A stretch of 64,000 bases of DNA from Acidobacteriota bacterium (lineage in GTDB: Bacteria > Acidobacteriota > Thermoanaerobaculia > Multivoradales > UBA5704). How positions within the stretch are numbered: the stretch's first letter is position 1; each line of letters begins with the position of its first letter. Positions 2,578 through 25,986 of this stretch are shown here, one piece after another. The stretch is taken from contig JBKPTH010000063.1 in the NCBI GenBank assembly GCA_046765915.1, positions 4,009 through 68,008 of the forward strand. Reading direction: 5' to 3'. Made by a program: the position numbers and the translations under genes. The notes under the pieces are model-generated. The model was not told the origin of the DNA, made no database searches, and was given only the letters and a program-made list of their open reading frames with translations.

Positions 2578-4197
2578 TTAAGAACCCCTGCCGCGCGGGC
2601 TCCTTTCCGCGTGCTCAGGGTCGACCGACGGCGCAGGCGTGCTGTGGTGAGATGTCGGGGGCCGGCCGAAGGAGCTGACGGCGTTGAAGGCCAGCAGGTA
2701 CTGCCCGCGGCTCAAGGCCTCGTAGATCCGGCGGATGGGCTTCTCGAAGGTGGCCGGGTCAACGGCTGCCGCCTCATCGGCGGCCAGGCCGACCGGCAGG
2801 ACGATCGGCAGCAGGGATGGATCGTACTTCCGGATCTGGCGGAAGATCTCGACCACCACGTCCGTGATCGTGTGCATGGCCTCCAGGTCGATCCAGATAG
2901 GAATATGCGTTTCCGCCTTCCGCGAGGCGAGGCGCGCCAACTCGCGGGACGAGCCCAGACCGAAGTCGCCGGGGTCATCGAGGAAGAACTGGATCGGAGC
3001 CTTGTCGGTGGCGGGCGCTGTGTCCTCGATCGGCTGCCCGGGATCGATGGGCCGGGAGACGTGGGGAGTGTAGGGCCGAGAAGCCGGAGGATGCGAGCCC
3101 GTGATCCTGCTGTACAACTCCAGCAGAAGGGCGCCGGGATCCTGGATGCGCACCGGAGAGATGGCTCCAGGGTAGAGATCCACGAGTTCCTGGACCGGCT
3201 CCGGGCAGCGCGACTCGAAATGCATCCAGTAGACCACGGTGTCGCCAGCGTGATTGCCCGGGGAGCGGCGCTGAGCTTCGCCAACCACCAGCTCCACCAG
3301 GTCGGTGATCCTCCGGTCCCAGCCGCCCAGGCCCATGACGAGAAGGACCGGGCGGTCGGGAAGGTAGCTCCGCAACCGGGCCTTGCTCTCTTCATCCAAG
3401 GGGTAGTCCAGTGACTCGCCGACGCGTAAACCGAAGACGCCGCCATGGAGCTTGACGACGGAAAGCTCCTGTTGGATCAGGTCGGGATGCGGCAGCGCGG
3501 CATTGTGGGAAACCTCGTACACGATAGGCAGGTGCCCCTCGATCCGCAACGCCTCTTCGAGCAGGTTGTCGAAGTTCGTCGTCAGGAACAGGCGAATTCC
3601 CAGGACCGGCGACAAGAGGGCCAGGAACCGGTGCGAGGTCCCAGGTTGGCGGTGCTGCACGAGTTGGTGGAACAGGGTGTCCGCGTAGTCCGGGGTGGCG
3701 CGCGTCAGGTGGGCCAGCAGGGTTTTCCAATTACCCTTGAGGCTCCAAAGTGCAGGCTGCGGAATGGGGTTCTGTTGCTCCCGCAGCGTCTTGATGGTTG
3801 AGGCCAGCTTCTCGTCCAGGCGCCCGATGTCTTCAATCAACTCTTCCTGGATCAGACGGTGAAGAGTGCCGCGGTAGGTCTCGCCTTCTCCCGTGGCATG
3901 GACCCAGAGGTCGGCGTCGAGCTGGTTCGGATCCGGCCACCCGAAGCTGCGCAGGTACCAGCTCGGATCCTTGCGGAAGCTCCGCCGGTCCGACGGCATT
4001 TCGCCCTGGCTCTTGGGGTTGTAGAGTCCCGTGCGGATGAAATACTCGACTTTGGCGAGATATTGAGTGAGGGACGACAAGGCGAGAATTCCGGATTCGA
4101 TCGAGAAGCCTGCACCGACCAGAGGAATGAACTCCCGTCCCTGATCGGAGGCTGCGATAAGCTCCCGAACCACCTCCAATTGCGACTTCGCGGGCAC
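2578..4197 (-). CDS. SIR2_2-family (DHS-like NAD-binding) protein, putative NADase effector
   Basis: Motifs GAGFSIESGI (GAGxS NAD-binding), TTNFD (TTNYD-like) and VVKLHGG (catalytic His) in SIR2 order. GTG start at 4197 is preceded by GGAGAGGGAG SD (spacing 5). The listed 739-aa ORF N-terminus overlaps gltX in another frame and is not real. GC3 looks lower than in core genes. Confidence 0.7.
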   Translation of the reverse strand: MPAKSQLEVVRELIAASDQGREFIPLVGAGFSIESGILALSSLTQYLAKVEYFIRTGLYNPKSQGEMPSDRRSFRKDPSWYLRSFGWPDPNQLDADLWVHATGEGETYRGTLHRLIQEELIEDIGRLDEKLASTIKTLREQQNPIPQPALWSLKGNWKTLLAHLTRATPDYADTLFHQLVQHRQPGTSHRFLALLSPVLGIRLFLTTNFDNLLEEALRIEGHLPIVYEVSHNAALPHPDLIQQELSVVKLHGGVFGLRVGESLDYPLDEESKARLRSYLPDRPVLLVMGLGGWDRRITDLVELVVGEAQRRSPGNHAGDTVVYWMHFESRCPEPVQELVDLYPGAISPVRIQDPGALLLELYSRITGSHPPASRPYTPHVSRPIDPGQPIEDTAPATDKAPIQFFLDDPGDFGLGSSRELARLASRKAETHIPIWIDLEAMHTITDVVVEIFRQIRKYDPSLLPIVLPVGLAADEAAAVDPATFEKPIRRIYEALSRGQYLLAFNAVSSFGRPPTSHHSTPAPSVDPEHAERSPRGRGS

Positions 4198-4301
4198 GGT
4201 TCTCCCTCTCCGATCCCCCTTGGGCGATCTCAACAGACAGGTTGCGTACGAGCGAAAAATAGTAGCAGGAAAGGGAGGCTGAAGCGACCAGACGAGCACG
4301 G

Positions 4302-5741
4302 TCAGCCTGACCGCATGAACGCGATGAAGCGCCCCAGCCGCCGATCCGCCGCTTCGCGGCCCAGGACCTCGACGAGATCGAAGAGCGGCGGCCCGGCCGC
4401 GGCGGCCGAGAGGGCCATGCGGGTGGGGTGGATCAGCACGGCCGGCTTGATCCCCCGCTCCTCCGCCAGCGACCGCAGCTCGGCCTCCAGCGTCTCCTTG
4501 TCGAAGCGCGGCAGTCTGGCGTAGCGCTCCCGCAGCGCCTCCAGGCGTTCCGGCAGGTCCGGATCTTTCACCCACTTGGCGGCGGCCGCCGGGTCGTACG
4601 CCAGCTCTTCCTGGAAGAAATACGCGACGGCGCCGGCCAGCTCCTTCAAGGTTTGAGCCCGGGTGCGGTGCAGCTCCAGGGCCGCCGTCAGACGCTCGCG
4701 GTCGGCGTCCTTCAGGCCGGCCTGCTCGAGGAAGGGCTCCAGATGCGGCCATAGCTCCTGGAGGCTCAGGCGCGACATGTACTGCGCGTTCATCCACCAG
4801 AGCTTCTCGCGGTCGAAGACGGCGGCCGAGGCGTTCAGCCGCTCGACGGAAAAGGCGGCGATCATCTCCTCCCGTGTCATGATCTCCCGCTCGTCCCCCG
4901 GGTTCCAGCCGAGCAGGGCGAGGAAGTTGTAGAGCGCCTGCGGCAGGATGCCCTCGTTGCGGAACTCCTCGACCGAGGTGGCGCCGTAGCGCTTGGAGAG
5001 GCGCTTCTTGTCCGGCCCCAGGATCAGCGGCAGATGTCCGAACGTGGGAACCGTGCCGCCCAGGGCCTGGAAGAGCGGGATGTGCTTGGGCGTGTTCGAG
5101 AGATGGTCCTCGCCGCGCAGCACGTGGGTGATCCGCATGTCGATGTCGTCCACGACGACGGACATGTGATACGTCGGATTGCCGTCGGAGCGCAGGAGGA
5201 TGAAATCGTCGAGCGCGTCCGGCGGAAAGTCCATGTCGCCGCGCACGAGGTCGTGAAAACGGATGTTGTCGTCCGGCATGCGGAAGCGGACGGCGAACGG
5301 CTGGCCGGCGGCCAGGCGCCGCTCGCTCTCCTCGGGCGAGAGCCGCAGGCAGGTGCGGGGATAGCGGAAGGCCTCGCCCCGCTTCTGGGCCTCCTCGCGC
5401 TGGGCGTCGAGCTCCGCGGGCGTGCAGAAGCAGCGGTAGGCCTTGCCCTGTGCCAGCAGCTCCTCGGCGCGCTCGTGGTGGCGGGGGAGCCGCTCGCTCT
5501 GCAGGAACGGCCCTTCGTCCCAGACGACGCCGATCCAGGCGAGGGCGGACTGGATCTGCCGCGTCATCGCCTCGTCAGAGCGCTCCTTGTCCGTGTCCTC
5601 GATGCGCAGCACGAAGGCGCCGCCGGCGCTCTGCCGCAGCAGATCGTTGTAGATCGCGGTGCGGGCGCCGCCCACGTGCAGGAAGCCGGTGGGCGAGGGC
5701 GCGAAGCGGACCCGCACGGGGCCGTGGATGGCGGTGCTCAT
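4302..5741 (-). CDS. gltX: Glutamate--tRNA ligase
   Basis: PSPTGFLHVGGARTAIYN (HIGH-type class I motif) and KRLSKRYG (KMSKS-type) present. Length 479 aa. Confidence 0.9.
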   Translation of the reverse strand: MSTAIHGPVRVRFAPSPTGFLHVGGARTAIYNDLLRQSAGGAFVLRIEDTDKERSDEAMTRQIQSALAWIGVVWDEGPFLQSERLPRHHERAEELLAQGKAYRCFCTPAELDAQREEAQKRGEAFRYPRTCLRLSPEESERRLAAGQPFAVRFRMPDDNIRFHDLVRGDMDFPPDALDDFILLRSDGNPTYHMSVVVDDIDMRITHVLRGEDHLSNTPKHIPLFQALGGTVPTFGHLPLILGPDKKRLSKRYGATSVEEFRNEGILPQALYNFLALLGWNPGDEREIMTREEMIAAFSVERLNASAAVFDREKLWWMNAQYMSRLSLQELWPHLEPFLEQAGLKDADRERLTAALELHRTRAQTLKELAGAVAYFFQEELAYDPAAAAKWVKDPDLPERLEALRERYARLPRFDKETLEAELRSLAEERGIKPAVLIHPTRMALSAAAAGPPLFDLVEVLGREAADRRLGRFIAFMRSG

Positions 5742-8102: not shown

Positions 8103-8675
8103 ATGAAAACAATGGCGCCCGTCGTGGATCCCCTGATCGACCGGCTGCGCGAGGCGGTGATGCTGGGCGATATCGCCGCCGTCACCGCGCGCATCAAGGG
8201 CGATCTCGAGTCGTTCATCCCCGCCGAGGGACTGACCCTGCCGGAGCACTTCCGCCAGGCCAGGCCGGACCGCTACGCGCGGCGGCTCCTCTACCGCGAT
8301 CCCGATCTCGGCTTCACGGCGCTCGTCATGACCTGGGGACCGGGGCAGCGTACGGCGCTCCACGACCACGCGGGCATCTGGTGCGTCGAGGGCGTGGTCG
8401 AGGGCAACATGGAGGTGACGCGCTACGAGCTGACGGAGGAGGGGGAGGATGGGATCTGCCATTTCGTCGAGCGCGGCAAGGTACCCGCCCGGGCCGGCAC
8501 GGCGGGAGCGCTGATCCCGCCCTTCGAGCACCATGTGCTGGCCAACGCGCGGCCCGATCAGGCTTCGCTCACCCTCCACGTCTACGGCGGCGAGATGACT
8601 CACTGCGACATCTTCGAGCCGCTCGGCGACGGCCTCTACCGGCGATGTACGAGGCAGCTCAGTTATGACGAGTAG
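8103..8675 (+). CDS. Cysteine dioxygenase type I-like cupin
   Basis: LHDHAGIWCVEGVVEGNMEV matches the CDO HDH...C motif. Cupin size (190 aa). ATG 8 nt after GAGGAGA, immediately downstream of speA stop. Confidence 0.72.
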   Translation: MKTMAPVVDPLIDRLREAVMLGDIAAVTARIKGDLESFIPAEGLTLPEHFRQARPDRYARRLLYRDPDLGFTALVMTWGPGQRTALHDHAGIWCVEGVVEGNMEVTRYELTEEGEDGICHFVERGKVPARAGTAGALIPPFEHHVLANARPDQASLTLHVYGGEMTHCDIFEPLGDGLYRRCTRQLSYDE

Positions 8676-9087
8676 GCCCGTTTTTCGGGTCAAGGCTGAG
8701 CACGGCGAGGTCGGGAAAGTATTGGCGCAGGTATCCGCGGTCTTTGGCAGCGAGACGGTCGGCCTGCACTTTGGCGTGGGCAGCGATCAAGAAGTCGGGG
8801 ATCAGGTGCTCTCGCGGTCCGCCCTCCGCACGATATCGCTTGAAGGTATGCCCTGCGAGCCAAGCCGCCTCGGCCCCGATCGGATCGAGATGAGCACCTA
8901 AATCCGCCAACACCTCGTCAAGCTCGGCTCGACTCTCAAAGGCAGGAGTTATCTCGGCATAGACGACCTCGCACAGCACCAGCAAGCCCTGGCGCCGCGC
9001 CTGGATCAAGATCTCCATCCAGTCCTCGGCACCAGGCTCCTGGTTGAACACTGTCAGGAGCGCCGACGCATCGAGGGCGAGCTTCAC
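8659..9087 (-). CDS. vapC: PIN-domain toxin VapC
   Basis: MKLALDASALL PIN N-terminus. 142 aa. GTGA overlap with upstream antitoxin stop. Confidence 0.8.
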   Translation of the reverse strand: MKLALDASALLTVFNQEPGAEDWMEILIQARRQGLLVLCEVVYAEITPAFESRAELDEVLADLGAHLDPIGAEAAWLAGHTFKRYRAEGGPREHLIPDFLIAAHAKVQADRLAAKDRGYLRQYFPDLAVLSLDPKNGPTRHN

Positions 9088-9326
9088 TGGTCCCTCTCAC
9101 CGACACGGCCACGAGTCTCGTCGAGCCACTCATCGGAGGTTTTCTTCAGCCGGCCGCGGGTACGACCGATAACCGCCCGCATCGCCTCTTCGTCGAAAAC
9201 CGGCACCGCCAGGACATATGGCGCCTTCTCGTCGAACTCGAGGACTTGGCCGGCTTGCAGACCGAGACGCCGCCGAATCGCCGTCGGAATGGTGACCTGG
9301 CCTTTGGACGTAAGCGTGGCTTTCAT
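9084..9326 (-). CDS. vapB: AbrB/SpoVT-type antitoxin VapB
   Basis: MKATLTSKGQVTIPTAIRRRLGL swapped-hairpin motif. Alternative TTG start at 9332. Confidence 0.72.
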   Translation of the reverse strand: MKATLTSKGQVTIPTAIRRRLGLQAGQVLEFDEKAPYVLAVPVFDEEAMRAVIGRTRGRLKKTSDEWLDETRGRVGERDQ

Positions 9327-9393
9327 ACCCAAAGCGTAATACGACGCAGTAAGGAATACAAGTAAGGAGTTGCCGGTGACTCTCTAGAGGTTG

Positions 9394-9870
9394 CGCAGAT
9401 CCGTTGGAAGCCTTCAATGGGCCTTTGGAGGCTTCCAACGAGTCATTGTACCTTCCAACGGCTCACCGGAAATCTTCGCTGGGCTTCGGTTTCTTCCCAT
9501 GGGCCGCTGGAAGTCTCGGCGGCGCGTTGAAAGCCTTCGACGGCTCATCGGAAATCTTCAAGAGTCGTCGAAAGTGCCGGTAAGCCGTTGGAAGCTCCCA
9601 AAGGGGCGTTGGAAGCCTCCACGAGGCGCCGAAGATCTCCAATGGCCCGTTGAAGGCTTTCGATGAGGTGTTGGAAGGAGCGATGGCCCTTTGGAAGCTT
9701 CCAAGGGTACGCCGAAGACTTCCAAGGAGCCGTCGAAGATCTCCGATGATCCGTTGGAGACTTCCAAACAACGTTGAAGACCTACAATGGCCCGTTGGAG
9801 CCTCCCATGGAGCTTTGGAGGTTTCCGGCGCGCCATTGAAAGTCTCCAAGAGCCGTTGTAAGCTTGGAAT
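9394..9870. repeat. Tandem array of ~23 degenerate 21-bp units, each containing a dyad (consensus CGTTGGAAGCCTCCAANGGNC; ideal unit CCCTTTGGAAGCTTCCAAGGG)
   Basis: Read directly: 21-bp periodicity. TTGGAAG(N0-2)CTTCCAA palindromes. No unique spacers. Stops in all frames across parts of the array. Confidence 0.7.
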
Positions 9871-9871
9871 G

Positions 9872-9904
9872 AAGCAAAAAGGGGAGCGTGCTGGGGGCAC
9901 GCTC
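9872..9904 (-). terminator. Rho-independent terminator of upstream hypothetical gene
   Basis: Minus strand reads GGGAGCGTGC-CCCCAG-GCACGCTCCC followed by CTTTTTGC, directly after the TAA at 9925. Confidence 0.6.
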
Positions 9905-9924
9905 CCGGAATCCTGCCTTACGGA

Positions 9925-10331
9925 TTACTGCTCATCGGTGTCAGGAGCCGGCTGAGGGCTCGCGACGGACTGCGGTGGCGGGACGTCGGGGGTCTCGGCC
10001 GGTTTCGCTTTGCGGCCGCGGAACGGCTGCAGGCCGAACTCCGTCAGCTTCTCGGCGCGGCTGCCGTAGCGATGCTTGAGGCCGCCTCGCATCACGGTCG
10101 CCAGCTTCGCGCCCTCGATCATCACCGTCTGCAGGCGCTTCGAGGTCTCCTGCTTGGCGGCCTGGTGAGCCGCCTGCTGCTTGGTGAGCTCGCGCGCCTC
10201 CTGGAGCAGCTTTCCAGGTCGATGCGGAGGAGCTCGAGCTGAGGCAGCTCGGAGGCGTTCGCGGCCGCGGAGGCCGTGATCTCTTCCCACTCCTTGAGGT
10301 GGTCGGCGTAACGACTCTTCTTGTCAGGCAC
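9925..10331 (-). pseudogene. Hypothetical coiled-coil protein interrupted by a -1 frameshift in a 3-nt A/T run (~10205-10215)
   Basis: Two overlapping minus ORFs (9925..10290 and 10122..10367) read as one coherent protein if one base is added in GGAAAGC: MPDKKSRYADHLKEWEEITASAAANASELPQLELLRIDLE|KLLQEARELTKQQAAHQAAKQ... GTG start at 10331 with AAAGGAG SD. Confidence 0.45.
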
Positions 10332-10638: not shown

Positions 10639-11016
10639 GTGTTTGTCAGCTATGCTGCAAAGGATAGCGAAGTGGCGAAGGAGCTGCAGCGAGCCCTCCA
10701 GAGAAAGGGTTTAGATTGCTTTCTCGCTGAGAAAGATTTAACCGCTGGCAAGGTTTGGCGCGAGGAGATAAGAGATGCGTTGCACCTGTCACGTGTGTTT
10801 GTGTTATTGCTGACCCCAAATTCGGTGACGAGCAAGTGGGCCATGTGTGAGGCTGGTGCCTTCTGGGCGCTCCGAAGGCCCATCGTCCCGGCTTATATGT
10901 TCGTTAATATAGGCGACGTTCCCGAGATAATATCCGAATATCAATGTAGGCGCATAGAATCTTACAGTGATCGAACTGATTTCGTTAGGGAAGTATATTC
11001 TCTCTGCCGTGGATGA
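10639..11016 (+). CDS. TIR-domain protein (standalone, 125 aa)
   Basis: MFVSYAAKDSEVAKELQRALQRKGLDCFLAEKDL...FVLLLTPNSVTSKWAMCEAG matches the bacterial TIR pattern F-SY-D...L...G...F-D...W...I...S...VLL-S-NS-S-W-E, including the conserved Glu. About 50% GC versus about 68% background. Confidence 0.8.
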   Translation: MFVSYAAKDSEVAKELQRALQRKGLDCFLAEKDLTAGKVWREEIRDALHLSRVFVLLLTPNSVTSKWAMCEAGAFWALRRPIVPAYMFVNIGDVPEIISEYQCRRIESYSDRTDFVREVYSLCRG

Positions 11017-11308: not shown

Positions 11309-11384
11309 GTATCGGTAGGGGCAGCCGCCGTCCTGTTCCGAGCGTGGTAGGATTTTTATGGAGAGACGCAACCACGGAGGTATC

Positions 11385-11585
11385 ATGGATCTGGAAGTTG
11401 TCGAGAAGGAAGTCGCAAGCTGGGCGCCGGAGGAGCAGGATCGCCTCGCAGCGTTTTTGACCGTACTCCGCTTGAAGAGAACACCGGACCATGTCCAAGA
11501 GCTGACCCGGCGCCTGGACGATCGCAATCCCACCAATTGGGTGAGCTTGGACGAAGTCAGGTCGCTTCGCGAACACCGTGGATGA
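11385..11585 (+). CDS. Small hypothetical protein, possible antitoxin of a RelE/ParE-like remnant pair
   Basis: GGAGG SD 6 nt before the ATG. ATGA overlap with the next small ORF. 66 aa. Confidence 0.35.
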   Translation: MDLEVVEKEVASWAPEEQDRLAAFLTVLRLKRTPDHVQELTRRLDDRNPTNWVSLDEVRSLREHRG

Positions 11586-22288: not shown

Positions 22289-23449
22289 GTGCCCGGATCC
22301 CGTCCCCACGTCGCGGTCATCGGCGCCGGAGCCCTCGGCGGCTGGACCGCCCTGCACCTCCTGCGGCGAGGAGCGCGCGTAACCCTGCTCGACGCCTGGG
22401 GACCGGGAAACTCCCGCGCCAGCTCGGGAGGCGAGACGCGGGTCATCCGCACCGTCTATGGGACCGACCGGATCTACGTGGACTGGACGGCCCGTTCCTT
22501 CCCGCTCTGGCGCGAGGCGGAAGAACGCTGGCACCTGCCGCTCTACCGGCGGACCGGCTCCCTCTGGATGTGCGGCGACGACGAGGGGTACGTCCGCTCC
22601 GCCATCCCACTGATCGAGGACGCGGGCCTGTGCATCGCCGAGCTGAGCCTGCCGGAGGCGCGACAACGGTTCCCGCAGGTCGACTTCGACGGCGTCCGCA
22701 GCGCCTTCATCGAGGACGAGGCCGGCTATCTCTTCGCCCGGCGCGCCTGCCAGGCGGTGGCCGCGGGCCTGGCGATCGAAGGGGGTGAGGTCCGGCTGGC
22801 GGCCGCCTCGCCGGGTCCCATCCGCAACGGCGCCATGGAGCGGCTGGAGCTGCCGGGAGGCGAATCTCTCGCCGCGGACCTCTACGTCTTCGCCTGCGGC
22901 CCCTGGCTCGGACGGCTCTTCCCGGAGGTAATTGGCGAGCGGATCCTGCCGACCCGGCAGGAGATCTACTTCTTCGGCACTCCGGCCGGCGATCCGCGGT
23001 TCGGCGACGACCTCTTCCCCGTCTGGTTCGATCTCGGCGAGAGGATCCTCTACGGCATCCCGGGCAACGAGCACCGCGGCTTCAAGGTGGCGGACGACAC
23101 CCGCGGCGAGCCCTTCGATCCCACCGCCGGCGAGCGCACGCCGACCCTGGATCTGGTCGCCATGACCCGCGACTTCCTGGCGCGGCGTTTCCCCGCAATG
23201 GCCGGCGCGCCGCTGGTCGAGGCGCGGGTCTGCCAATACGAGAACAGTCCGGACGGCCACCTCCTCTTCGACCGCCACCCCGAGGCCGCCAACGTCTGGT
23301 TCCTGGGCGGCGGCTCGGGCCACGGCTTCAAGTTCGGGCCCGCGCTAGGCGAGTACGCGGCGGGGATCATCCTCGACGGCGGCGCTCCTCTCTCCCTCTT
23401 CGCGCTGGACCGCGCCGATGACGCGAGGAAAACGCAGTTCGAGCGGTGA
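22289..23449 (+). CDS. FAD-dependent oxidoreductase (DAO family)
   Basis: VAVIGAGALGGWTALHLLRRGARVTLLD Rossmann motif. 386 aa. Confidence 0.8.
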   Translation: MPGSRPHVAVIGAGALGGWTALHLLRRGARVTLLDAWGPGNSRASSGGETRVIRTVYGTDRIYVDWTARSFPLWREAEERWHLPLYRRTGSLWMCGDDEGYVRSAIPLIEDAGLCIAELSLPEARQRFPQVDFDGVRSAFIEDEAGYLFARRACQAVAAGLAIEGGEVRLAAASPGPIRNGAMERLELPGGESLAADLYVFACGPWLGRLFPEVIGERILPTRQEIYFFGTPAGDPRFGDDLFPVWFDLGERILYGIPGNEHRGFKVADDTRGEPFDPTAGERTPTLDLVAMTRDFLARRFPAMAGAPLVEARVCQYENSPDGHLLFDRHPEAANVWFLGGGSGHGFKFGPALGEYAAGIILDGGAPLSLFALDRADDARKTQFER

Positions 23450-23464
23450 CGCGGGCGGGATCGC

Positions 23465-23680
23465 CTACCCGTCTGGGTCGTGCCCAGGCTGCGGCAAGCG
23501 GTCGAAAAGAACGAGCACGCCGTGGGTGTAAGGAGGATCGAAGTCGTTCGTCGCCTGAGCAAGGGTGAACCAGAGATCCCACGCCTTGTCCAGTTCTTCG
23601 GGAGTCATGTCTTTTAGGTTCAAGTCGTCTTCACTGAGCAGTTCCATCTCCGGCCACCCTGACGCGAACGTCTCGTTCAT
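23465..23680 (-). CDS. Small hypothetical protein (71 aa); the listed 181-aa ORF continues through the 21-bp array
   Basis: MNETFASGWPEMELLSEDDLNLKDMTPEELDKAWDLWF... looks protein-like. The upstream in-frame portion is made of heptad repeats generated by the array. Confidence 0.35.
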   Translation of the reverse strand: MNETFASGWPEMELLSEDDLNLKDMTPEELDKAWDLWFTLAQATNDFDPPYTHGVLVLFDRLPQPGHDPDG

Positions 23681-23714
23681 CCATTGACGCTTGCATAGCG
23701 GGAGCCTATCGCAG

Positions 23715-23975
23715 ACCCCGCCGGTTGCGTTGGGGCGTCCGCCGGCTGCGATGGGAAGCGCATCGGTTGGGATGCGACATGCAGTGGCAGAAATGCGGCG
23801 CGCATCCGTTGGGATGGAATGCCCCTTGGCAGCACCGGGCGCGCATCGGTTGGGACATAGAGCCCATTGGCGCCGATGGGACTTGCATTGGATGCGATGG
23901 TGCGCCCATCGGTTGCGATGGGACATGCATCCGCTGCAAGGGGACTCCCTTCGCAGCGGCCGCCTACCCTCATGG
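23715..23975. repeat. Second tandem array, ~13 units of 21 bp (consensus CATCGGTTGCGATGGGACATG), each with a CCATC-N6-GATGG-type dyad
   Basis: Read directly. Same period and architecture as the 9394..9870 array. Lies in the divergent region directly upstream of the cPLA2-like gene. Confidence 0.7.
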
Positions 23976-24042
23976 CTCCTACCCAGCACTTGCTGTATTC
24001 TGAAGCGCACGCAACAACCCAGATTGCCGAAGGAGGCCCCTC

Positions 24043-25986
24043 ATGGAGAGGACGGGCGTGTCGGGCAGTTTCAAGGCGCAGCTCACGAAGACTTCGCAAT
24101 CCCTCACGGTCGGGCAGTTCGTCTCGCTGCCGAACACGCCCGGCAACGTCGGGATCTGCCTCAGCGGCGGGGGCTCGCGGGCGCTCTCGGCCGGCATGGG
24201 CCAACTCCGCGGCCTGGCCTATCTGCAGCTCAATGGCAAGAGCCTGCTGAGCCAGACCAGAGCCATCTCTACGGTCTCCGGCGGCTCGTGGCTCGGCGTG
24301 ACGTTCGAGTTCCTCACCTCAGGCACCGCCGACAGCGCTTACCTCAACGAGTACGTGCCGGACCCGGGCCGGCTCGTCCCCACCGCCACGGCCGGACACT
24401 CCCCGGCCGAGACTCTCGACGTACTGCCGCAAGGCAACATCGGCAACTCGATCAGCACGGATCTCTTCTCCATTCCGGCCCTGGCGGTCGAGGCCTTCCT
24501 GCTCTACAAGCTGCTCGGCACGCCGCTGGACTTCCTCTGGCAGGCCTTGATCGGCGCCCACATCCTGTGGCCTTATGGTCTCTTCAACCCGGGCCGCCGC
24601 GCCCTGCCGGTCTCGCTGTTCTCGTGGGATGAGGGGACTCTCCAATCTCAGGTGACCGGTCCCAACCCCGAGCTCGGAGACGAGATCGCCCATCTCATCA
24701 CCGGCGGTGCGGACCGCGCCCGCCGGCCGTTCGTGGTCTGCAATACGGCCATGTTCCTGATCGAGCCGGGGACGGTTTTTCAGCTTCTGGCGCCGGTACA
24801 GGCCACAGCCTTCATGACAGGGATCGTGGGGGCTCCCACGGGCAAGGACGTCAACGGCCGCGCGCCCGGCGGCGGCGGCGTAACCCCTTTCGCCTTCAGC
24901 TCGAACCCCACCGCCGTTCAGGGAACCGGCGTGACCGTCGACCAGCAGCGGCAGCTCTCGCTCACCGACATCGTCGGCTCGAGCAGCGCCGCCTTCGCGG
25001 AGACCCTGAAGAACCTGTTCGTCACCTGGGAGCAGGACGTGCAGCAGTTCGTGGCCGAGCTGGAGAAACGGGCGGATGAGCTCTGGGACTGGATCAAGGA
25101 GCGGTTCTCCCACCTCGACGCGATCGCGGATCTCATCGAGGACGTCGCCAAGGCGCTCGAAGGGCCCGCGGAACGTCTCGAGCCGCGCCTGAAGCTCGCG
25201 TCGCCCAGCGACCTGGCCAGCCTGAAGGCGGACTTCCAGGCCCTCCAAGGCTTGATCCCCCAGTACCAGTACTGGCCCGTGGCAGGCGTCCAACCGTACC
25301 CGCAGACGAAACCGACCGGCTTCGCCGATGGCGGCAGCCTGGAGAACAGCGGCGTCAACGCCATGCTCGCCTACTCGGACGTCGACAACCTCATCTCCTT
25401 CCTCAACTCCGCCACTCCCCTCTCCGCGGGCAATCTCGGCATGTTCGGCGCCGACGACAAGGAAGTGCCGAATACGCGGGTGATCATCACCGAGAACATC
25501 CCGCCGCTCTTCGGCTACCAACCCTATAATCCTCAGAAGGGCTACGTGCTCTACGCCGGAGACGAGAACCCCACCTTCCCGCAGGGGAAGAACAGCCAGG
25601 TCTTCGAATCTTCCCTGCTGGCCGAGGTGATCCAGGGCTTGTGGGCGGCGAGCGGCAGCGGCAACAACACCGGCCCTGCCTTCTTCAAGCAGACGCTCCT
25701 CGCCGTGCGGGACAACGCCTGGTTCGGAGTGCGAGGAGGCGGACGTACGGTCAACGTGCTCTGGGTTTATCCGAACCGCGACTCTTCGTGGTTCAACCTG
25801 CTGAGCCCCGGCGTCCAGGCGCTCCTCAATCCGTTCAGCGATCCCACGACGTTCAAACAGTTCCCGCACTACGGCACGTTCTACACGGACCTCTCGGCCC
25901 AGGAGATCAACCTGCTCGCCAACTACACGGCGTGGATGGTCGCCGATCCCGACAACGCGAAGCAGTTCCTGAGCCTGTACCAGTGA
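24043..25986 (+). CDS. cPLA2-like lysophospholipase catalytic-domain protein (PLA2_B family)
   Basis: GICLSGGGSRALSAGMGQL (cPLA2 Gly-rich/Arg motif SGGGxRA) and TVSGGSWLG (cPLA2 GxSGS-W nucleophile elbow). GAAGGAGG SD. No signal peptide. Confidence 0.65.
   Translation: MERTGVSGSFKAQLTKTSQSLTVGQFVSLPNTPGNVGICLSGGGSRALSAGMGQLRGLAYLQLNGKSLLSQTRAISTVSGGSWLGVTFEFLTSGTADSAYLNEYVPDPGRLVPTATAGHSPAETLDVLPQGNIGNSISTDLFSIPALAVEAFLLYKLLGTPLDFLWQALIGAHILWPYGLFNPGRRALPVSLFSWDEGTLQSQVTGPNPELGDEIAHLITGGADRARRPFVVCNTAMFLIEPGTVFQLLAPVQATAFMTGIVGAPTGKDVNGRAPGGGGVTPFAFSSNPTAVQGTGVTVDQQRQLSLTDIVGSSSAAFAETLKNLFVTWEQDVQQFVAELEKRADELWDWIKERFSHLDAIADLIEDVAKALEGPAERLEPRLKLASPSDLASLKADFQALQGLIPQYQYWPVAGVQPYPQTKPTGFADGGSLENSGVNAMLAYSDVDNLISFLNSATPLSAGNLGMFGADDKEVPNTRVIITENIPPLFGYQPYNPQKGYVLYAGDENPTFPQGKNSQVFESSLLAEVIQGLWAASGSGNNTGPAFFKQTLLAVRDNAWFGVRGGGRTVNVLWVYPNRDSSWFNLLSPGVQALLNPFSDPTTFKQFPHYGTFYTDLSAQEINLLANYTAWMVADPDNAKQFLSLYQ

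Follow-up and report, generated by a model that had tools for sequence, protein, structure and literature searches.

A degenerate, non-coding 21-bp tandem array of Thermoanaerobaculia and its sequence-unrelated sister arrays

Tandem repeats in bacterial intergenic DNA

Bacterial minisatellites, including the VNTRs, are intergenic head-to-tail arrays of 10–100-bp units that feature higher-order periods, copy numbers varying between strains, decay from the edges inward, and no conservation between species. Other arrays form part of dedicated systems: The sopC-type centromere of the F plasmid consists of 12 units of 43 bp with a palindromic SopB site in each, while the ToxI RNA antitoxin of type III toxin-antitoxin systems is encoded by 36-nt repeat units upstream of toxN. 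Palindromes of 14–18 bp spaced 21 bp from centre to centre are also a common operator geometry, as seen for ArgR boxes or tandem GlpR operators. In Porphyromonas gingivalis, some MITEs carry internal tandem repeats of 23 nt (BrickBuilt) or 41 nt (MITEPgRS/464), and BrickBuilt forms a family dispersed over 19 sites per genome, all of which share one unit together with a leader, a tail, and IS5-like terminal inverted repeats (PMC4596501). REPs are genome-wide families of a single sequence that bear a GTAG or CGTC tag and are frequently accompanied by a RAYT transposase (PMC3733652).

The tandem array described here, A2, is found in 64 kb of DNA (hereafter the window, meaning the whole stretch that was analyzed) from a soil Acidobacterium. 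Literature searches found no descriptions of such arrays in Acidobacteriota. Taken as a group, A2 and its sister arrays in related genomes share the features of minisatellites listed above, with a copy number that differs between strains in one sister array (locus L043 versus L044), but typing VNTRs are much less degenerate than A2, and the arrays of this lineage are uniform in period (~20.6–20.8 or 42 bp) despite unrelated sequence. To our knowledge, such uniformity across sequence-unrelated arrays is no described property of VNTRs. Like BrickBuilt and MITEPgRS/464, these arrays have spacer-less units of ~22 and ~41 nt and are always intergenic and promoter-proximal, and one of them (in L058) is likewise bounded by terminal inverted repeats; A2 itself, however, lacks such repeats as well as a leader and a tail, and in all sequence compared its unit is found only there. 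The arrays resemble REP/BIME elements in their short palindromic units that can form tandem clusters in intergenic DNA, and a 42-bp unit in L056 looks like two inverted 21-bp halves as in a REP dimer. Yet each array has its own sequence, the unit alignments contain no conserved GTAG/CGTC tag (CGTC occurs in a few units of one sister array, A1, only), and the units are not dispersed over many intergenic sites, either within the window or across 519 kb of DNA from relatives. With plasmid iterons and sopC, the arrays have in common a phasing of units at about two or four helical turns, palindromes in some units, and ~10–25 units per array. Unlike these, A2 is situated in chromosomal housekeeping DNA with units far more degenerate (54% identity) than functional iterons, and no rep or par genes were detected by Pfam among ~25 of the 44 window ORFs (those at 5.6–33.8 kb). 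Finally, arrays that immediately precede a small accessory operon of toxin-antitoxin-like character recall type III systems such as ToxI, and unit sizes of 36–45 nt are comparable to the 42-bp arrays. The differences are that no terminator separates array and gene here, that the arrays are dispensable (most operon copies lack one), degenerate, and not co-conserved with the proteins, and that the putative toxin gene is deleted in the window.

Anatomy and non-coding status of array A2

A2 (23719–23948) comprises 11 related, degenerate 21-bp units with the consensus CATCGGTTGCGATGGGACATG and a mean period of 20.83 bp by wrap-around alignment. A sequence-only reading had placed a 21-bp tandem array here, between a minus-strand 71-aa ORF (23465–23680) and the ATG of a phospholipase-like gene at 24043, and this is borne out by TRF and by autocorrelation against shuffles. 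TRF calls a 42-bp period at 23758–23855 (79% matches) and a 21-bp period at 23874–23945 (68% matches), and the autocorrelation of the intergenic gap at 23681–24042 reaches 0.43 at lag 21 and 0.42 at lag 42 compared to a maximum of 0.37 in 200 shuffles. Of the gaps between genes in the window, 16 were tested, and none but this gap and the one holding A1 (9333–9924) surpass their own shuffle maximum with a dominant repeat period; three long gaps lie marginally above it at scattered multiples of 3.

The 11 units match each other at 8–19 of 21 positions over a background of ~6/21 (mean 11.4/21, corresponding to 54% pairwise identity in the identity matrix) and match the consensus at 13–17 positions, with the most degenerate units at the edges. 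The consensus proposed in the sequence-only reading is found exactly in one unit only (at 23907). A weak higher-order period of 42 bp is apparent from better matches at offset 2 (12.8/21) than at offset 1 (11.0/21), and one unit, at 23824, is 20 bp long. These are head-to-tail copies with a periodicity beyond chance, as expected of a tandem repeat or minisatellite. The count of 13 units given previously was too high: The 21-mer at 23949 agrees with A2 units at 5–10 of 21 positions, which is the background level, and from 23983 on, the sequence belongs to the conserved stretch that precedes the downstream gene. Between them, a degenerate tail (23949–23982) is not recognizable as a repeat unit. 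The last unit and this tail form an inverted repeat (23931–23959; 14-nt arms, 86% complementary) that is followed by no T-run on either strand and at which a terminator scan finds no site. In a copy-number comparison, the only other instance of A2 was an identical 3.5-kb contig.

The array is non-coding. Five of six frames are open across A2 with a period of 7 codons, but at 68% G+C frames tend to stay open by chance. The 20-bp unit shifts the frame midway, so that the repeat is not read in the same frame on both sides of it, which counts for non-coding status, and neither of the two ORFs through the array has a Pfam match. The ORFs with an ATG every 7 codons are an illusion, as had been suspected from the sequence. 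Homologues of the minus-strand ORF, most of them 55–90 aa long, align with its last ~60 residues only.

Each unit had further been said to hold a CCATC-N6-GATGG dyad. A pattern search finds this motif exactly once in 64 kb, in a single A2 unit (23906–23921; CCATCGGTTGCGATGG), while CATC-N6-GATG is present in 3 and CATY-N6-GATG in 5 of the 11 units. Across the array, the 7-pair dyad is Watson-Crick paired in 65% of cells, or in 75% once G-T pairs are counted, compared to 68% in column shuffles (12 of 500 attain the observed 75%) and 33–60% in slid controls; the covariation score is 0.275 versus 0.204 in column shuffles (26 of 500). Given this partial pairing and the control values, the dyad is a property of the consensus and of about half of the units, not of every unit. 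Some palindrome constraint is therefore possible, as pairing of the arms is slightly above the column shuffles, and the balance of 8 G-T and 6 A-C mismatches means that neither strand is favored. The predicted fold of the plus strand (−123.6 kcal/mol) is barely better than that of shuffles (−110.7 ± 6.8 kcal/mol; z ~ −1.9), and the minus strand shows no gain (−108.0 kcal/mol; z = 0). Intrinsic curvature as a common denominator of the arrays was dropped for A2: A wedge model, whose output is indicative only, ranks it as straighter than 91% of genomic windows and predicts strong curvature for the array in L004.

Flanking genes and sister arrays

The downstream gene (24043–25986, plus strand) encodes a cPLA2/lysophospholipase-like protein of 647 aa with GGGxR and GxSGG motifs and 681 homologues, mostly from Thermoanaerobaculia. 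The protein has no direct Pfam match, and PF01735 is recorded on two distant homologues. Immediately upstream of this gene, the plus-strand region 23983–24042 is 88% identical to the orthologous locus L011 and alignable to other orthologous loci, and it probably contains the promoter, 5' UTR, and RBS of the phospholipase-like gene. Homology to L011 starts at ~23983, 3' of A2, and the array is missing from all 18 orthologous loci including L011, the 87%-identical relative, which has an AT-rich insert in its place. The neighborhood of A2 and the phospholipase-like gene is not conserved, and A2 was rejected as a conserved control element of this gene because the 18 orthologous loci lack it. The earlier description of A2 as directly upstream of a cPLA2-like gene is thus accurate as to position but misleading. 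Relatives have other insertions upstream of the phospholipase-like gene: L005 and L010 contain palindromic inserts that resemble MITEs, and L011 contains an IS fragment.

The closer partner of A2 is the minus-strand ORF, and it is this flank, not the phospholipase-like gene, that ties A2 to similar arrays elsewhere. This "71-aa" ORF (23465–23680) appears to be made up of the first ~8 codons of a conserved gene of 260–270 aa fused to a conserved, strongly acidic protein of ~60 aa (MELLSEDDLNLKDMTPEELDKAW...). Its 307 homologues cover only the C-terminal 65–90%, the DNA homology around it ends at 23658, and in L033, L042, L043, L052, and L054 the small gene follows, and overlaps with, a gene of ~267 aa. 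A deletion in a conserved two-gene operon (~265 aa + 60 aa) probably gave rise to the "71-aa" ORF, and tblastn finds no trace of the ~267-aa gene in the window. A2 as a pseudogene of that missing gene was discarded on the same blank tblastn search and because the 267-aa protein has no heptad repeats. Searches of Pfam, NCBIfam, PADLOC, PHROGs, and PDB sequences gave nothing usable on the function of the operon proteins, and the 267-aa protein was not found in viral contigs; its sequence may contain nucleotidyltransferase (AbiEii/DUF1814-like) motifs. The small protein is ~80–90% identical among homologues, and the one next to A2 has a net charge of about −11 calculated from its sequence, which makes DNA binding unlikely.

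A unique spacer of 60 bp (23659–23718, minus strand) separates A2 from this ORF. Pairwise alignments show it to be weakly similar to the part of L056 that holds the promoter and start of the conserved operon, and with a −10-like TATGCA at 23692–23697 it may be the promoter of the minus-strand ORF, though a scan of the spacer for the sigma-70 consensus gave no match. A scan around A2 found no promoter-like or terminator-like sites, with no terminator between A2 and either gene.

The sister array in the window, A1 (9402–9875), is located between the terminator of a minus-strand gene and the start of a vapBC operon and contains 23 units with the consensus CGTTGGAAGCTTCCAATGGGC, a mean period of 20.55 bp, and a higher-order period of 41 bp. 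Its unit lengths vary from 18 to 23 bp, and it has stops in several frames. Altogether, ~330 kb of Thermoanaerobaculia DNA contain eight arrays with periods of 21 bp (six) or 42 bp (two), which thus make up 8 of the 10 non-coding arrays that were found. Besides A1 and A2, the 21-bp class includes arrays in L004 (3710–3960), L033 (4660–4890), L052 (8600–9140), and L058 (1575–1925), and mean periods across the class are 20.55–20.83 bp where measured. The 42-bp arrays of L043 and L056 have units of 92–95% identity (92% in L056). In L043, the unit is a terminator-like hairpin after a stop codon and occurs in 4 copies compared to 2 in L044/L049, although these contigs are otherwise near-identical. 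All arrays are located 5' of at least one gene, and each consists of its own unit that is found nowhere else. No match to the array sequences was detected in 485 kb compared, the flanks match other loci in the sequence compared here only via the neighboring genes, and the array units have no match in plasmids and only single chance matches, never arrays, in viral contigs.

The best cyclic alignment of the A1 and A2 consensus scores 8 versus 6.1 ± 2.3 in shuffled units (p = 0.20), so that the CGTTGG(A/G)A core ascribed to both arrays in the sequence-only reading is not distinguishable from chance. Only two pairs of consensus units exceed shuffles without correction, L052/L056 (p = 0.007) and A2/L033 (p = 0.043), and homology between arrays was rejected because neither pair survives correction for 27 comparisons. 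The view that A1 and A2 follow one design holds for their period and general layout; the dyad is intact in a minority of A2 units. Palindromes with arms of 7–9 bp are present in the consensus units of A1, L004, and L052, and these three arrays fold far better than shuffles, while self-complementarity beyond shuffles is absent from the L033 array and small in A2. Of the two mechanisms offered previously, a common repeat-generating process is supported by the six further 21/42-bp arrays with unrelated units in related genomes. A shared family of regulators with differing half-sites is not supported, as the motifs occur only inside their own arrays and the L033 array shows no self-complementarity beyond shuffles.

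Arrays are also found directly upstream of the same two-gene operon in L052 (~25 units of 21 bp) and L056 (~10 units of 42 bp), both unlike A2 in sequence. The operon in these two loci is intact or truncated, and A2 sits upstream of an operon remnant. An array thus occupies the same upstream position in 3 of ~8 operon contexts, while four or five others have none. This exceeds the prediction from the background rate in phospholipase loci (1 array per ~190 kb), which hints at function or at a hot spot.

Possible origins of A2 and what they imply

Given that relatives harbor unrelated arrays with the same 21/42-bp period, A2 is most likely a locally amplified, decaying repeat, and the lack of sequence relationship between the arrays argues against shared-regulator operators or conserved control of the phospholipase-like gene. 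We therefore favor, with somewhat better than even confidence, the explanation that A2 is a non-coding minisatellite that arose by slippage-type local amplification, has since been decaying, and is one of a lineage-wide population of arrays. Slipped-strand mispairing or unequal recombination would have multiplied a 21-bp segment with a small palindrome, and later a 42-bp dimer, locally within a permissive spacer that immediately precedes the promoter of the minus-strand two-gene operon. Point mutations and one 1-bp deletion would then have eroded the copies to ~54% pairwise identity, and most of the operon's first gene would have been deleted. More generally, arrays in Thermoanaerobaculia may start out as near-perfect 42- or 21-bp repeats whose copy number differs from strain to strain, and later degenerate and disappear. 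Slippage alone gives no fixed period, so that something must set the unit length of the arrays, be it selection or mechanism. A phasing constraint may lie behind the constancy of 21/42 bp, which corresponds to two or four turns of the helix, and we infer that this period could survive since insertions of whole turns leave the rotational setting of flanking promoter elements undisturbed.

A related but considerably less probable explanation is that the arrays are structural elements independent of sequence. Arrays phased at two helical turns would then be retained in front of promoters, most of all that of the conserved operon; their period or palindromic character would be what matters, and concerted evolution would continually replace the sequence itself. 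They might, for example, serve a nucleoid-associated or structure-specific protein as a scaffold, or separate divergent promoters as an insulator or as a spacer that preserves phase. Several observations are in line with this idea: The period of 20.55–20.83 bp is constant over unrelated sequences, the position upstream of the same operon recurs in L052, L056, and the window, every array lies 5' of at least one gene, and the weak similarity of L052 and L056 units before correction would be expected of diverged homologous arrays. However, four or five other operon contexts and the close relatives at the A2 locus have no array, self-complementarity is weak in A2 and absent in L033, and predicted curvature, for what this indicative model can tell, is not common to the arrays. 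To the same tentative degree, promoter-upstream elements of Thermoanaerobaculia might be set by geometry (~20.7-bp units, often palindromic, with a 42-bp higher order) and keep their position upstream of a conserved toxin-antitoxin-like operon while their sequence turns over completely. Such elements could serve a nucleoid or structure-reading protein as a phased scaffold, or act as a spacer that is tunable by whole helical turns.

The chances appear slim that A2 is an array of operators in which each unit is a palindromic site for a dimeric DNA-binding protein, with paralogous regulators for the different arrays. This would fit the common operator geometry described above, the palindromic consensus units of A1, L004, and L052, and the location of A1 upstream of vapB, which encodes a DNA-binding antitoxin. 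Yet half-sites are not conserved in most A2 units (the dyad is exact in one and relaxed in five of the 11), neither the window nor 519 kb of DNA from relatives contains the core motifs of A1 and A2 outside their own arrays, at other promoters or elsewhere, and the charge of the protein next to A2 speaks against DNA binding. In addition, arrays that are unrelated or faintly related precede an operon whose small protein is well conserved, which is unlike the behavior of operators of conserved proteins, and we know of no precedent for 11–25 operators in one array.

We give slightly less credence still to A2 being the remnant interior of a minisatellite-bearing MITE (BrickBuilt/PgRS-like) that has lost its terminal inverted repeats. 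In favor of this, the array of L058/L059 is enclosed by inverted repeats (perfect over 61 nt and 91% identical over ~120 nt) in a MITE-like element, and the inserts upstream of the phospholipase-like gene in L005, L010, and L011 as well as the internal 23-nt and 41-nt repeats of P. gingivalis MITEs (PMC4596501) point in the same direction. No inverted repeats flank A2, A1, or the arrays of L004, L033, L052, and L056, though, and multiple copies sharing unit and flanks are not seen: The sequence compared contains no second copy of any unit or flank, in contrast to the 19 BrickBuilt copies per genome.

A transcribed array of small hairpins, acting as a REP/BIME-like stabilizer or terminator of mRNA or as a type III RNA antitoxin for the adjacent operon, seems marginally more doubtful again. 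The 42-nt units of L056 (92% identity) directly upstream of the putative toxin-like operon do show a ToxI-like layout, the L043 unit forms a terminator-like hairpin, and the A1, L004, and L052 arrays fold far better than shuffles. For A2 itself, by contrast, we found neither strand-specific pairing nor a promoter, a terminator, or co-conservation with a toxin: Its fold is barely above shuffles on the plus strand and not on the minus strand, its mismatches favor no strand, none of the arrays has an Rfam match, and most copies of the operon lack an array while the proteins are conserved and the repeats are not. A sponge RNA of the CsrA/Rsm type with GGA motifs in every unit was likewise rejected, since the L004 and L033 arrays lack GGA and there is neither an Rfam match nor a strand bias. 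Translation of A2 as a heptad-repeat protein, either from minus-strand ORF 23465–24010 or from plus-strand ORF 23725–24003, is effectively refuted despite the open frames, as no single frame passes through all units, no homologues cover the repeat, DNA homology ends at 23658, and sister-array units vary from 18 to 23 bp.

Taken alone, the favored decaying minisatellite is an ordinary one of its kind in bacteria without any sign of conserved function, and its annotation as a gene, an RNA, or a regulatory site of the phospholipase-like gene would be unwarranted. The wider interest lies in a little-studied class of Acidobacteriota whose long non-coding tandem arrays nearly all have units of ~21 or 42 bp with any sequence, and of which several precede one small operon. 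If this regularity of period were true genome-wide, it would point to a length-selective filter that tolerates whole-turn insertions near promoters or to a length-specific mechanism of amplification. These arrays would then offer a simple case in which to test whether selection acts on the geometry of DNA but not on its sequence.

Anatomy and coding status of the array

The 21-bp tandem array between the 71-aa ORF and the phospholipase-like gene (A2, 23719-23948) has a real periodicity, as the sequence-only reading had proposed. With Tandem Repeats Finder, 23758-23855 came out as a repeat of 42 bp (79% matches) and 23874-23945 as one of 21 bp (68% matches). Across the gap 23681-24042, identity is 0.43 between positions 21 bp apart and 0.42 between positions 42 bp apart, with all 200 shuffles at or below 0.37. 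Among 16 intergenic gaps of the window, a dominant repeat period beyond the gap's own shuffle maximum is seen only here and at the first array (A1; gap 9333-9924); in three long gaps the maximum is passed marginally, at scattered multiples of 3. Aligned by wrap-around to a cyclic consensus, the units start at 23719, 23740, 23761, 23782, 23803, 23824 (a 20-bp unit), 23844, 23865, 23886, 23907, and 23928, a mean period of 20.83 bp. Agreement with the consensus ranges from 13 to 17 of 21 positions per unit, and units agree with one another at a mean of 11.4 of 21. That value is slightly higher for next-but-one units (12.8) than for adjacent ones (11.0), which reflects a 42-bp higher order. We count 11 related units rather than the 13 first described because the 21-mer at 23949 resembles them only at background level; the right end lies near 23948-23970, and the sequence from 23983 on is conserved DNA upstream of the phospholipase-like gene.

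The array is also more degenerate than had been thought. The CCATC-N6-GATGG dyad ascribed to every unit occurs in exact form once (23906-23921), three units have CATC-N6-GATG and five have CATY-N6-GATG, and every match to these relaxed motifs in the 64-kb window falls within A2. Scoring a 7-pair helix over 12 unit windows, 75% of cells pair with G-U allowed (column shuffles 68%, with 12 of 500 reaching the observed value; slid controls 33-60%), and 50 of 77 cells pair under Watson-Crick rules only. From these counts and scores, the palindrome belongs to the ancestral A2 unit and is kept in about half of the copies. A role as RNA is unsupported: G-T and A-C mismatches are balanced (8 and 6), so that neither strand is favoured, fold stability is marginal (plus strand -123.6 and minus strand -108.0 kcal/mol; shuffles -110.7 +/- 6.8), and a scan found no promoter-like or terminator-like sites for A2.

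Five frames are open across A2, as expected at the G+C content of the window (67.8%). We reject a genuine repeat protein, since the 20-bp unit puts the repeat into another frame midway (plus-frame HRLGCDM... before and IGCDGTC... after), Pfam matched neither array ORF, and homologues of the minus-strand ORF 23465-24010 cover only its last ~60 residues. The apparent heptad-repeat ORFs are thus illusory, as first suggested, and translation of ORF 23465-24010 through the array, which would have refuted that reading, is not borne out.

Genomic setting and flanking genes

A2 lies among ordinary chromosomal genes, encoding an ECF sigma factor, two DUF4252 proteins, a DAO-family FAD oxidoreductase (22289-23449, plus strand), a TonB-dependent-receptor-like protein, DUF455, an S1/P1 nuclease, and a HepT toxin; Pfam found no replication or partition genes among the ~25 of the window's 44 ORFs that were scanned. 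The closest relatives of the window's proteins come from MAGs labelled Thermoanaerobaculia (Acidobacteriota), and the sole other public copy of the A2 locus is an identical 3.5-kb contig in run SRR20019834.

The 647-aa phospholipase-like protein (24043-25986) has hundreds of homologues, only two of which, both distant, have PF01735 recorded. The position of A2 directly upstream of this gene holds, but a tie to it does not, as the array is missing from all 18 orthologous loci examined, which came from a genome collection, a metagenome collection, and a single direct look-up. L011, the closest of these (87% protein identity), shares homology with the window only from 23983 on, and an AT-rich insert with an IS5-like fragment takes the place of A2; L014, L016, and L017 have a 20-bp operon junction upstream of the gene, and L004 has a different array at the same position (units TGAAAACCCCAGGGGTTTTAT). 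The region upstream of the phospholipase-like gene is a landing pad for variable DNA, with different inserts in different genomes. The L011 segment (9193-9900) comprises an IS5-like transposase fragment and AT-rich DNA carrying a 93-aa ORF, and long palindromic MITE-like inserts are seen upstream of the gene in L010 (~3720-3960) and L005 (~3760-3950).

On the other, more informative side of A2, the 71-aa ORF encodes one of a family of over 300 small proteins (55-90 aa) whose highly conserved core begins at MELLSEDDLNLKDM; its own product is strongly acidic (~14 acidic and 3 basic residues). In the related loci L033, L042, L043, L052, and L054/L058, the small-protein gene is preceded and overlapped by a gene of 260-270 aa, whose product has no match in Pfam, NCBIfam, PADLOC, PHROGs, or a PDB sequence search. 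As a two-gene unit, the operon occurs widely in Thermoanaerobaculia and was matched by no Pfam, NCBIfam, PADLOC, or PHROG family. The larger gene was not found in the window by tblastn, and window-L033 DNA homology is limited to 23463-23658. The window ORF begins with MNETFAS, and these codons and the adjacent upstream sequence align weakly with the start (MHNLYFD) and promoter-proximal region of the larger gene in L056, which retains just a 52-codon remnant of the larger gene. Judging from the compared sequences (window 23465-23680, minus strand; L033 3211-4183; L052 9215-10189; L056 5855-6207), the 71-aa ORF looks like a deletion derivative of the operon in which ~8 codons from the start of the larger gene are fused to the conserved acidic 60-aa protein, whose gene normally overlaps the end of the larger one. 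A2 would then lie just upstream of the operon's former start.

Other arrays in the lineage

Further arrays of 21 or 42 bp occur in related loci. That of L052/L053 spans ~540 bp in ~25 units (21 bp each, consensus ATGATCCCGGCCGAGCTCGGG) and stops ~75 bp short of the ATG of the 260-aa gene, and L056 has ~10 copies of a 42-bp unit (92% identity) in the same place before the operon. On each side of the L052 array (8560-8580 and 9186-9199) lies a near-identical 12-mer, TCCCGGGCGGGG or TCCCGGGCGGGA, in direct orientation; it may have seeded the amplification or be a duplication scar left by it. The 21-bp array of L033 (4660-4890), at a locus syntenic with the window through the DAO gene and the 60-aa gene, lies directly upstream of a 137-aa gene (4194-4607, minus strand); the Lys/Arg-rich product, which has a predicted coiled-coil and no family match, might bind nucleic acid. 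In L058/L059, a 21-bp array with a 126-bp higher order (1575-1925) lies between inverted repeats (perfect over 61 nt, 91% over ~120 nt), making the element (1384-2150) MITE-like; the 227-aa gene called across it by JGI is probably spurious. The 42-bp unit of L043 (13340-13560) is a terminator-like hairpin (11-bp stem) right after a stop codon and is present in four copies there and in two in L044 (13340-13480) and L049, both otherwise near-identical to L043, which makes it a live VNTR.

A1 (9402-9875; 23 units of 21 bp, 41-bp higher order) is bordered on one side by a terminator and on the other by the start of a vapBC operon. This clear intrinsic terminator (9882-9906, minus strand; 10-bp stem with 8 G-C pairs, then a T-run) serves the minus-strand gene ending at 9925 and marks the right boundary of the array. 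A1 is part of a small accessory islet of lower G+C between arginine decarboxylase and molybdopterin oxidoreductase genes (features at 8659-9332, minus strand, and 10639-11016 and 11358-11585, plus strand), with a PIN toxin and MazE/AbrB-type antitoxin pair (vapBC), a 75-aa ORF, and a 125-aa ORF (MFVSYAAKDSEV...) that looks like a putative TIR domain.

Mean periods of the measured arrays are 20.55, 20.83, 20.55, 20.79, and 20.82 bp, and the only other non-coding arrays of at least 3 copies in ~300-330 kb of non-redundant sequence are short (13 bp x 4.1 and 10 bp x 3.9). The 21- and 42-bp arrays are unrelated in sequence. When consensus units were compared by best cyclic alignment against shuffles, A1 and A2 agreed at chance level (p = 0.20), so that the core they were said to share is not borne out; only L052/L056 (p = 0.007) and A2/L033 (p = 0.043) exceeded chance, both uncorrected for 27 comparisons. 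Local alignment of three operon-upstream regions recovered only a promoter/start segment shared by L052 and L056, each core motif is restricted to its own array in the 519 kb searched, and BLAST of arrays and flanks against all compared loci gave links only via neighbouring genes. The arrays had no match to plasmids or Rfam and only single chance hits to viral contigs.

Origin of the array and of its period

Of the two shared mechanisms first proposed, a common repeat-generating process stands, in keeping with the further 21/42-bp arrays. Amplification of this kind is ongoing in the lineage, as shown by the near-perfect young arrays of L043 and L056 and the copy difference between L043 and L044. 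A2 most likely began as a 21-bp segment with a small palindrome that was duplicated and then diverged; the 42-bp dimer would then have been amplified by slippage or unequal exchange, the array would have decayed afterwards, and most of the neighbouring gene would have been deleted. According to general surveys, prokaryotic intergenic DNA is also enriched in divergent tandem repeats (PMC12418385).

The other proposal, one regulator family with different half-site specificities, is unsupported: motifs are not reused, dyads are mostly broken, the self-complementarity of the L033 array does not exceed that of shuffles, the operon has different arrays across loci although its small protein is ~80-90% identical across homologues, and the protein adjacent to A2 is acidic. 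With no terminal inverted repeats and no further copies in the sequence searched, A2 does not qualify as a BrickBuilt-like MITE (PMC4596501). The L058/L059 sister array does have such repeats. The 23-nt and 41-nt tandem repeats carried by P. gingivalis MITEs (PMC4596501) are strikingly similar in length to the units of the lineage arrays. Nor is A2 a REP/BIME element, as its units are not dispersed in the 519 kb searched and lack a conserved GTAG/CGTC tag (PMC3733652).

Slippage leaves the uniform period of the arrays unaccounted for. Among integer lengths, 21 bp (two helical turns) and 42 bp (four) are the shortest to equal whole multiples of 10.5 bp. Arrays with these periods could therefore grow or shrink beside promoters without rotating the flanking elements against each other, and such helical-turn neutrality is the most economical candidate reason for the uniformity. 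Shared intrinsic curvature does not explain it, as an indicative wedge-model calculation predicts strong curvature for the L004 array and none for A2.

A2 is thus a real, ordinary non-coding minisatellite, untied to the phospholipase-like gene and without sequence in common with the first array. It is the lineage-wide 21/42-bp regularity, together with its recurrence upstream of one operon, that merits a genome-wide check.
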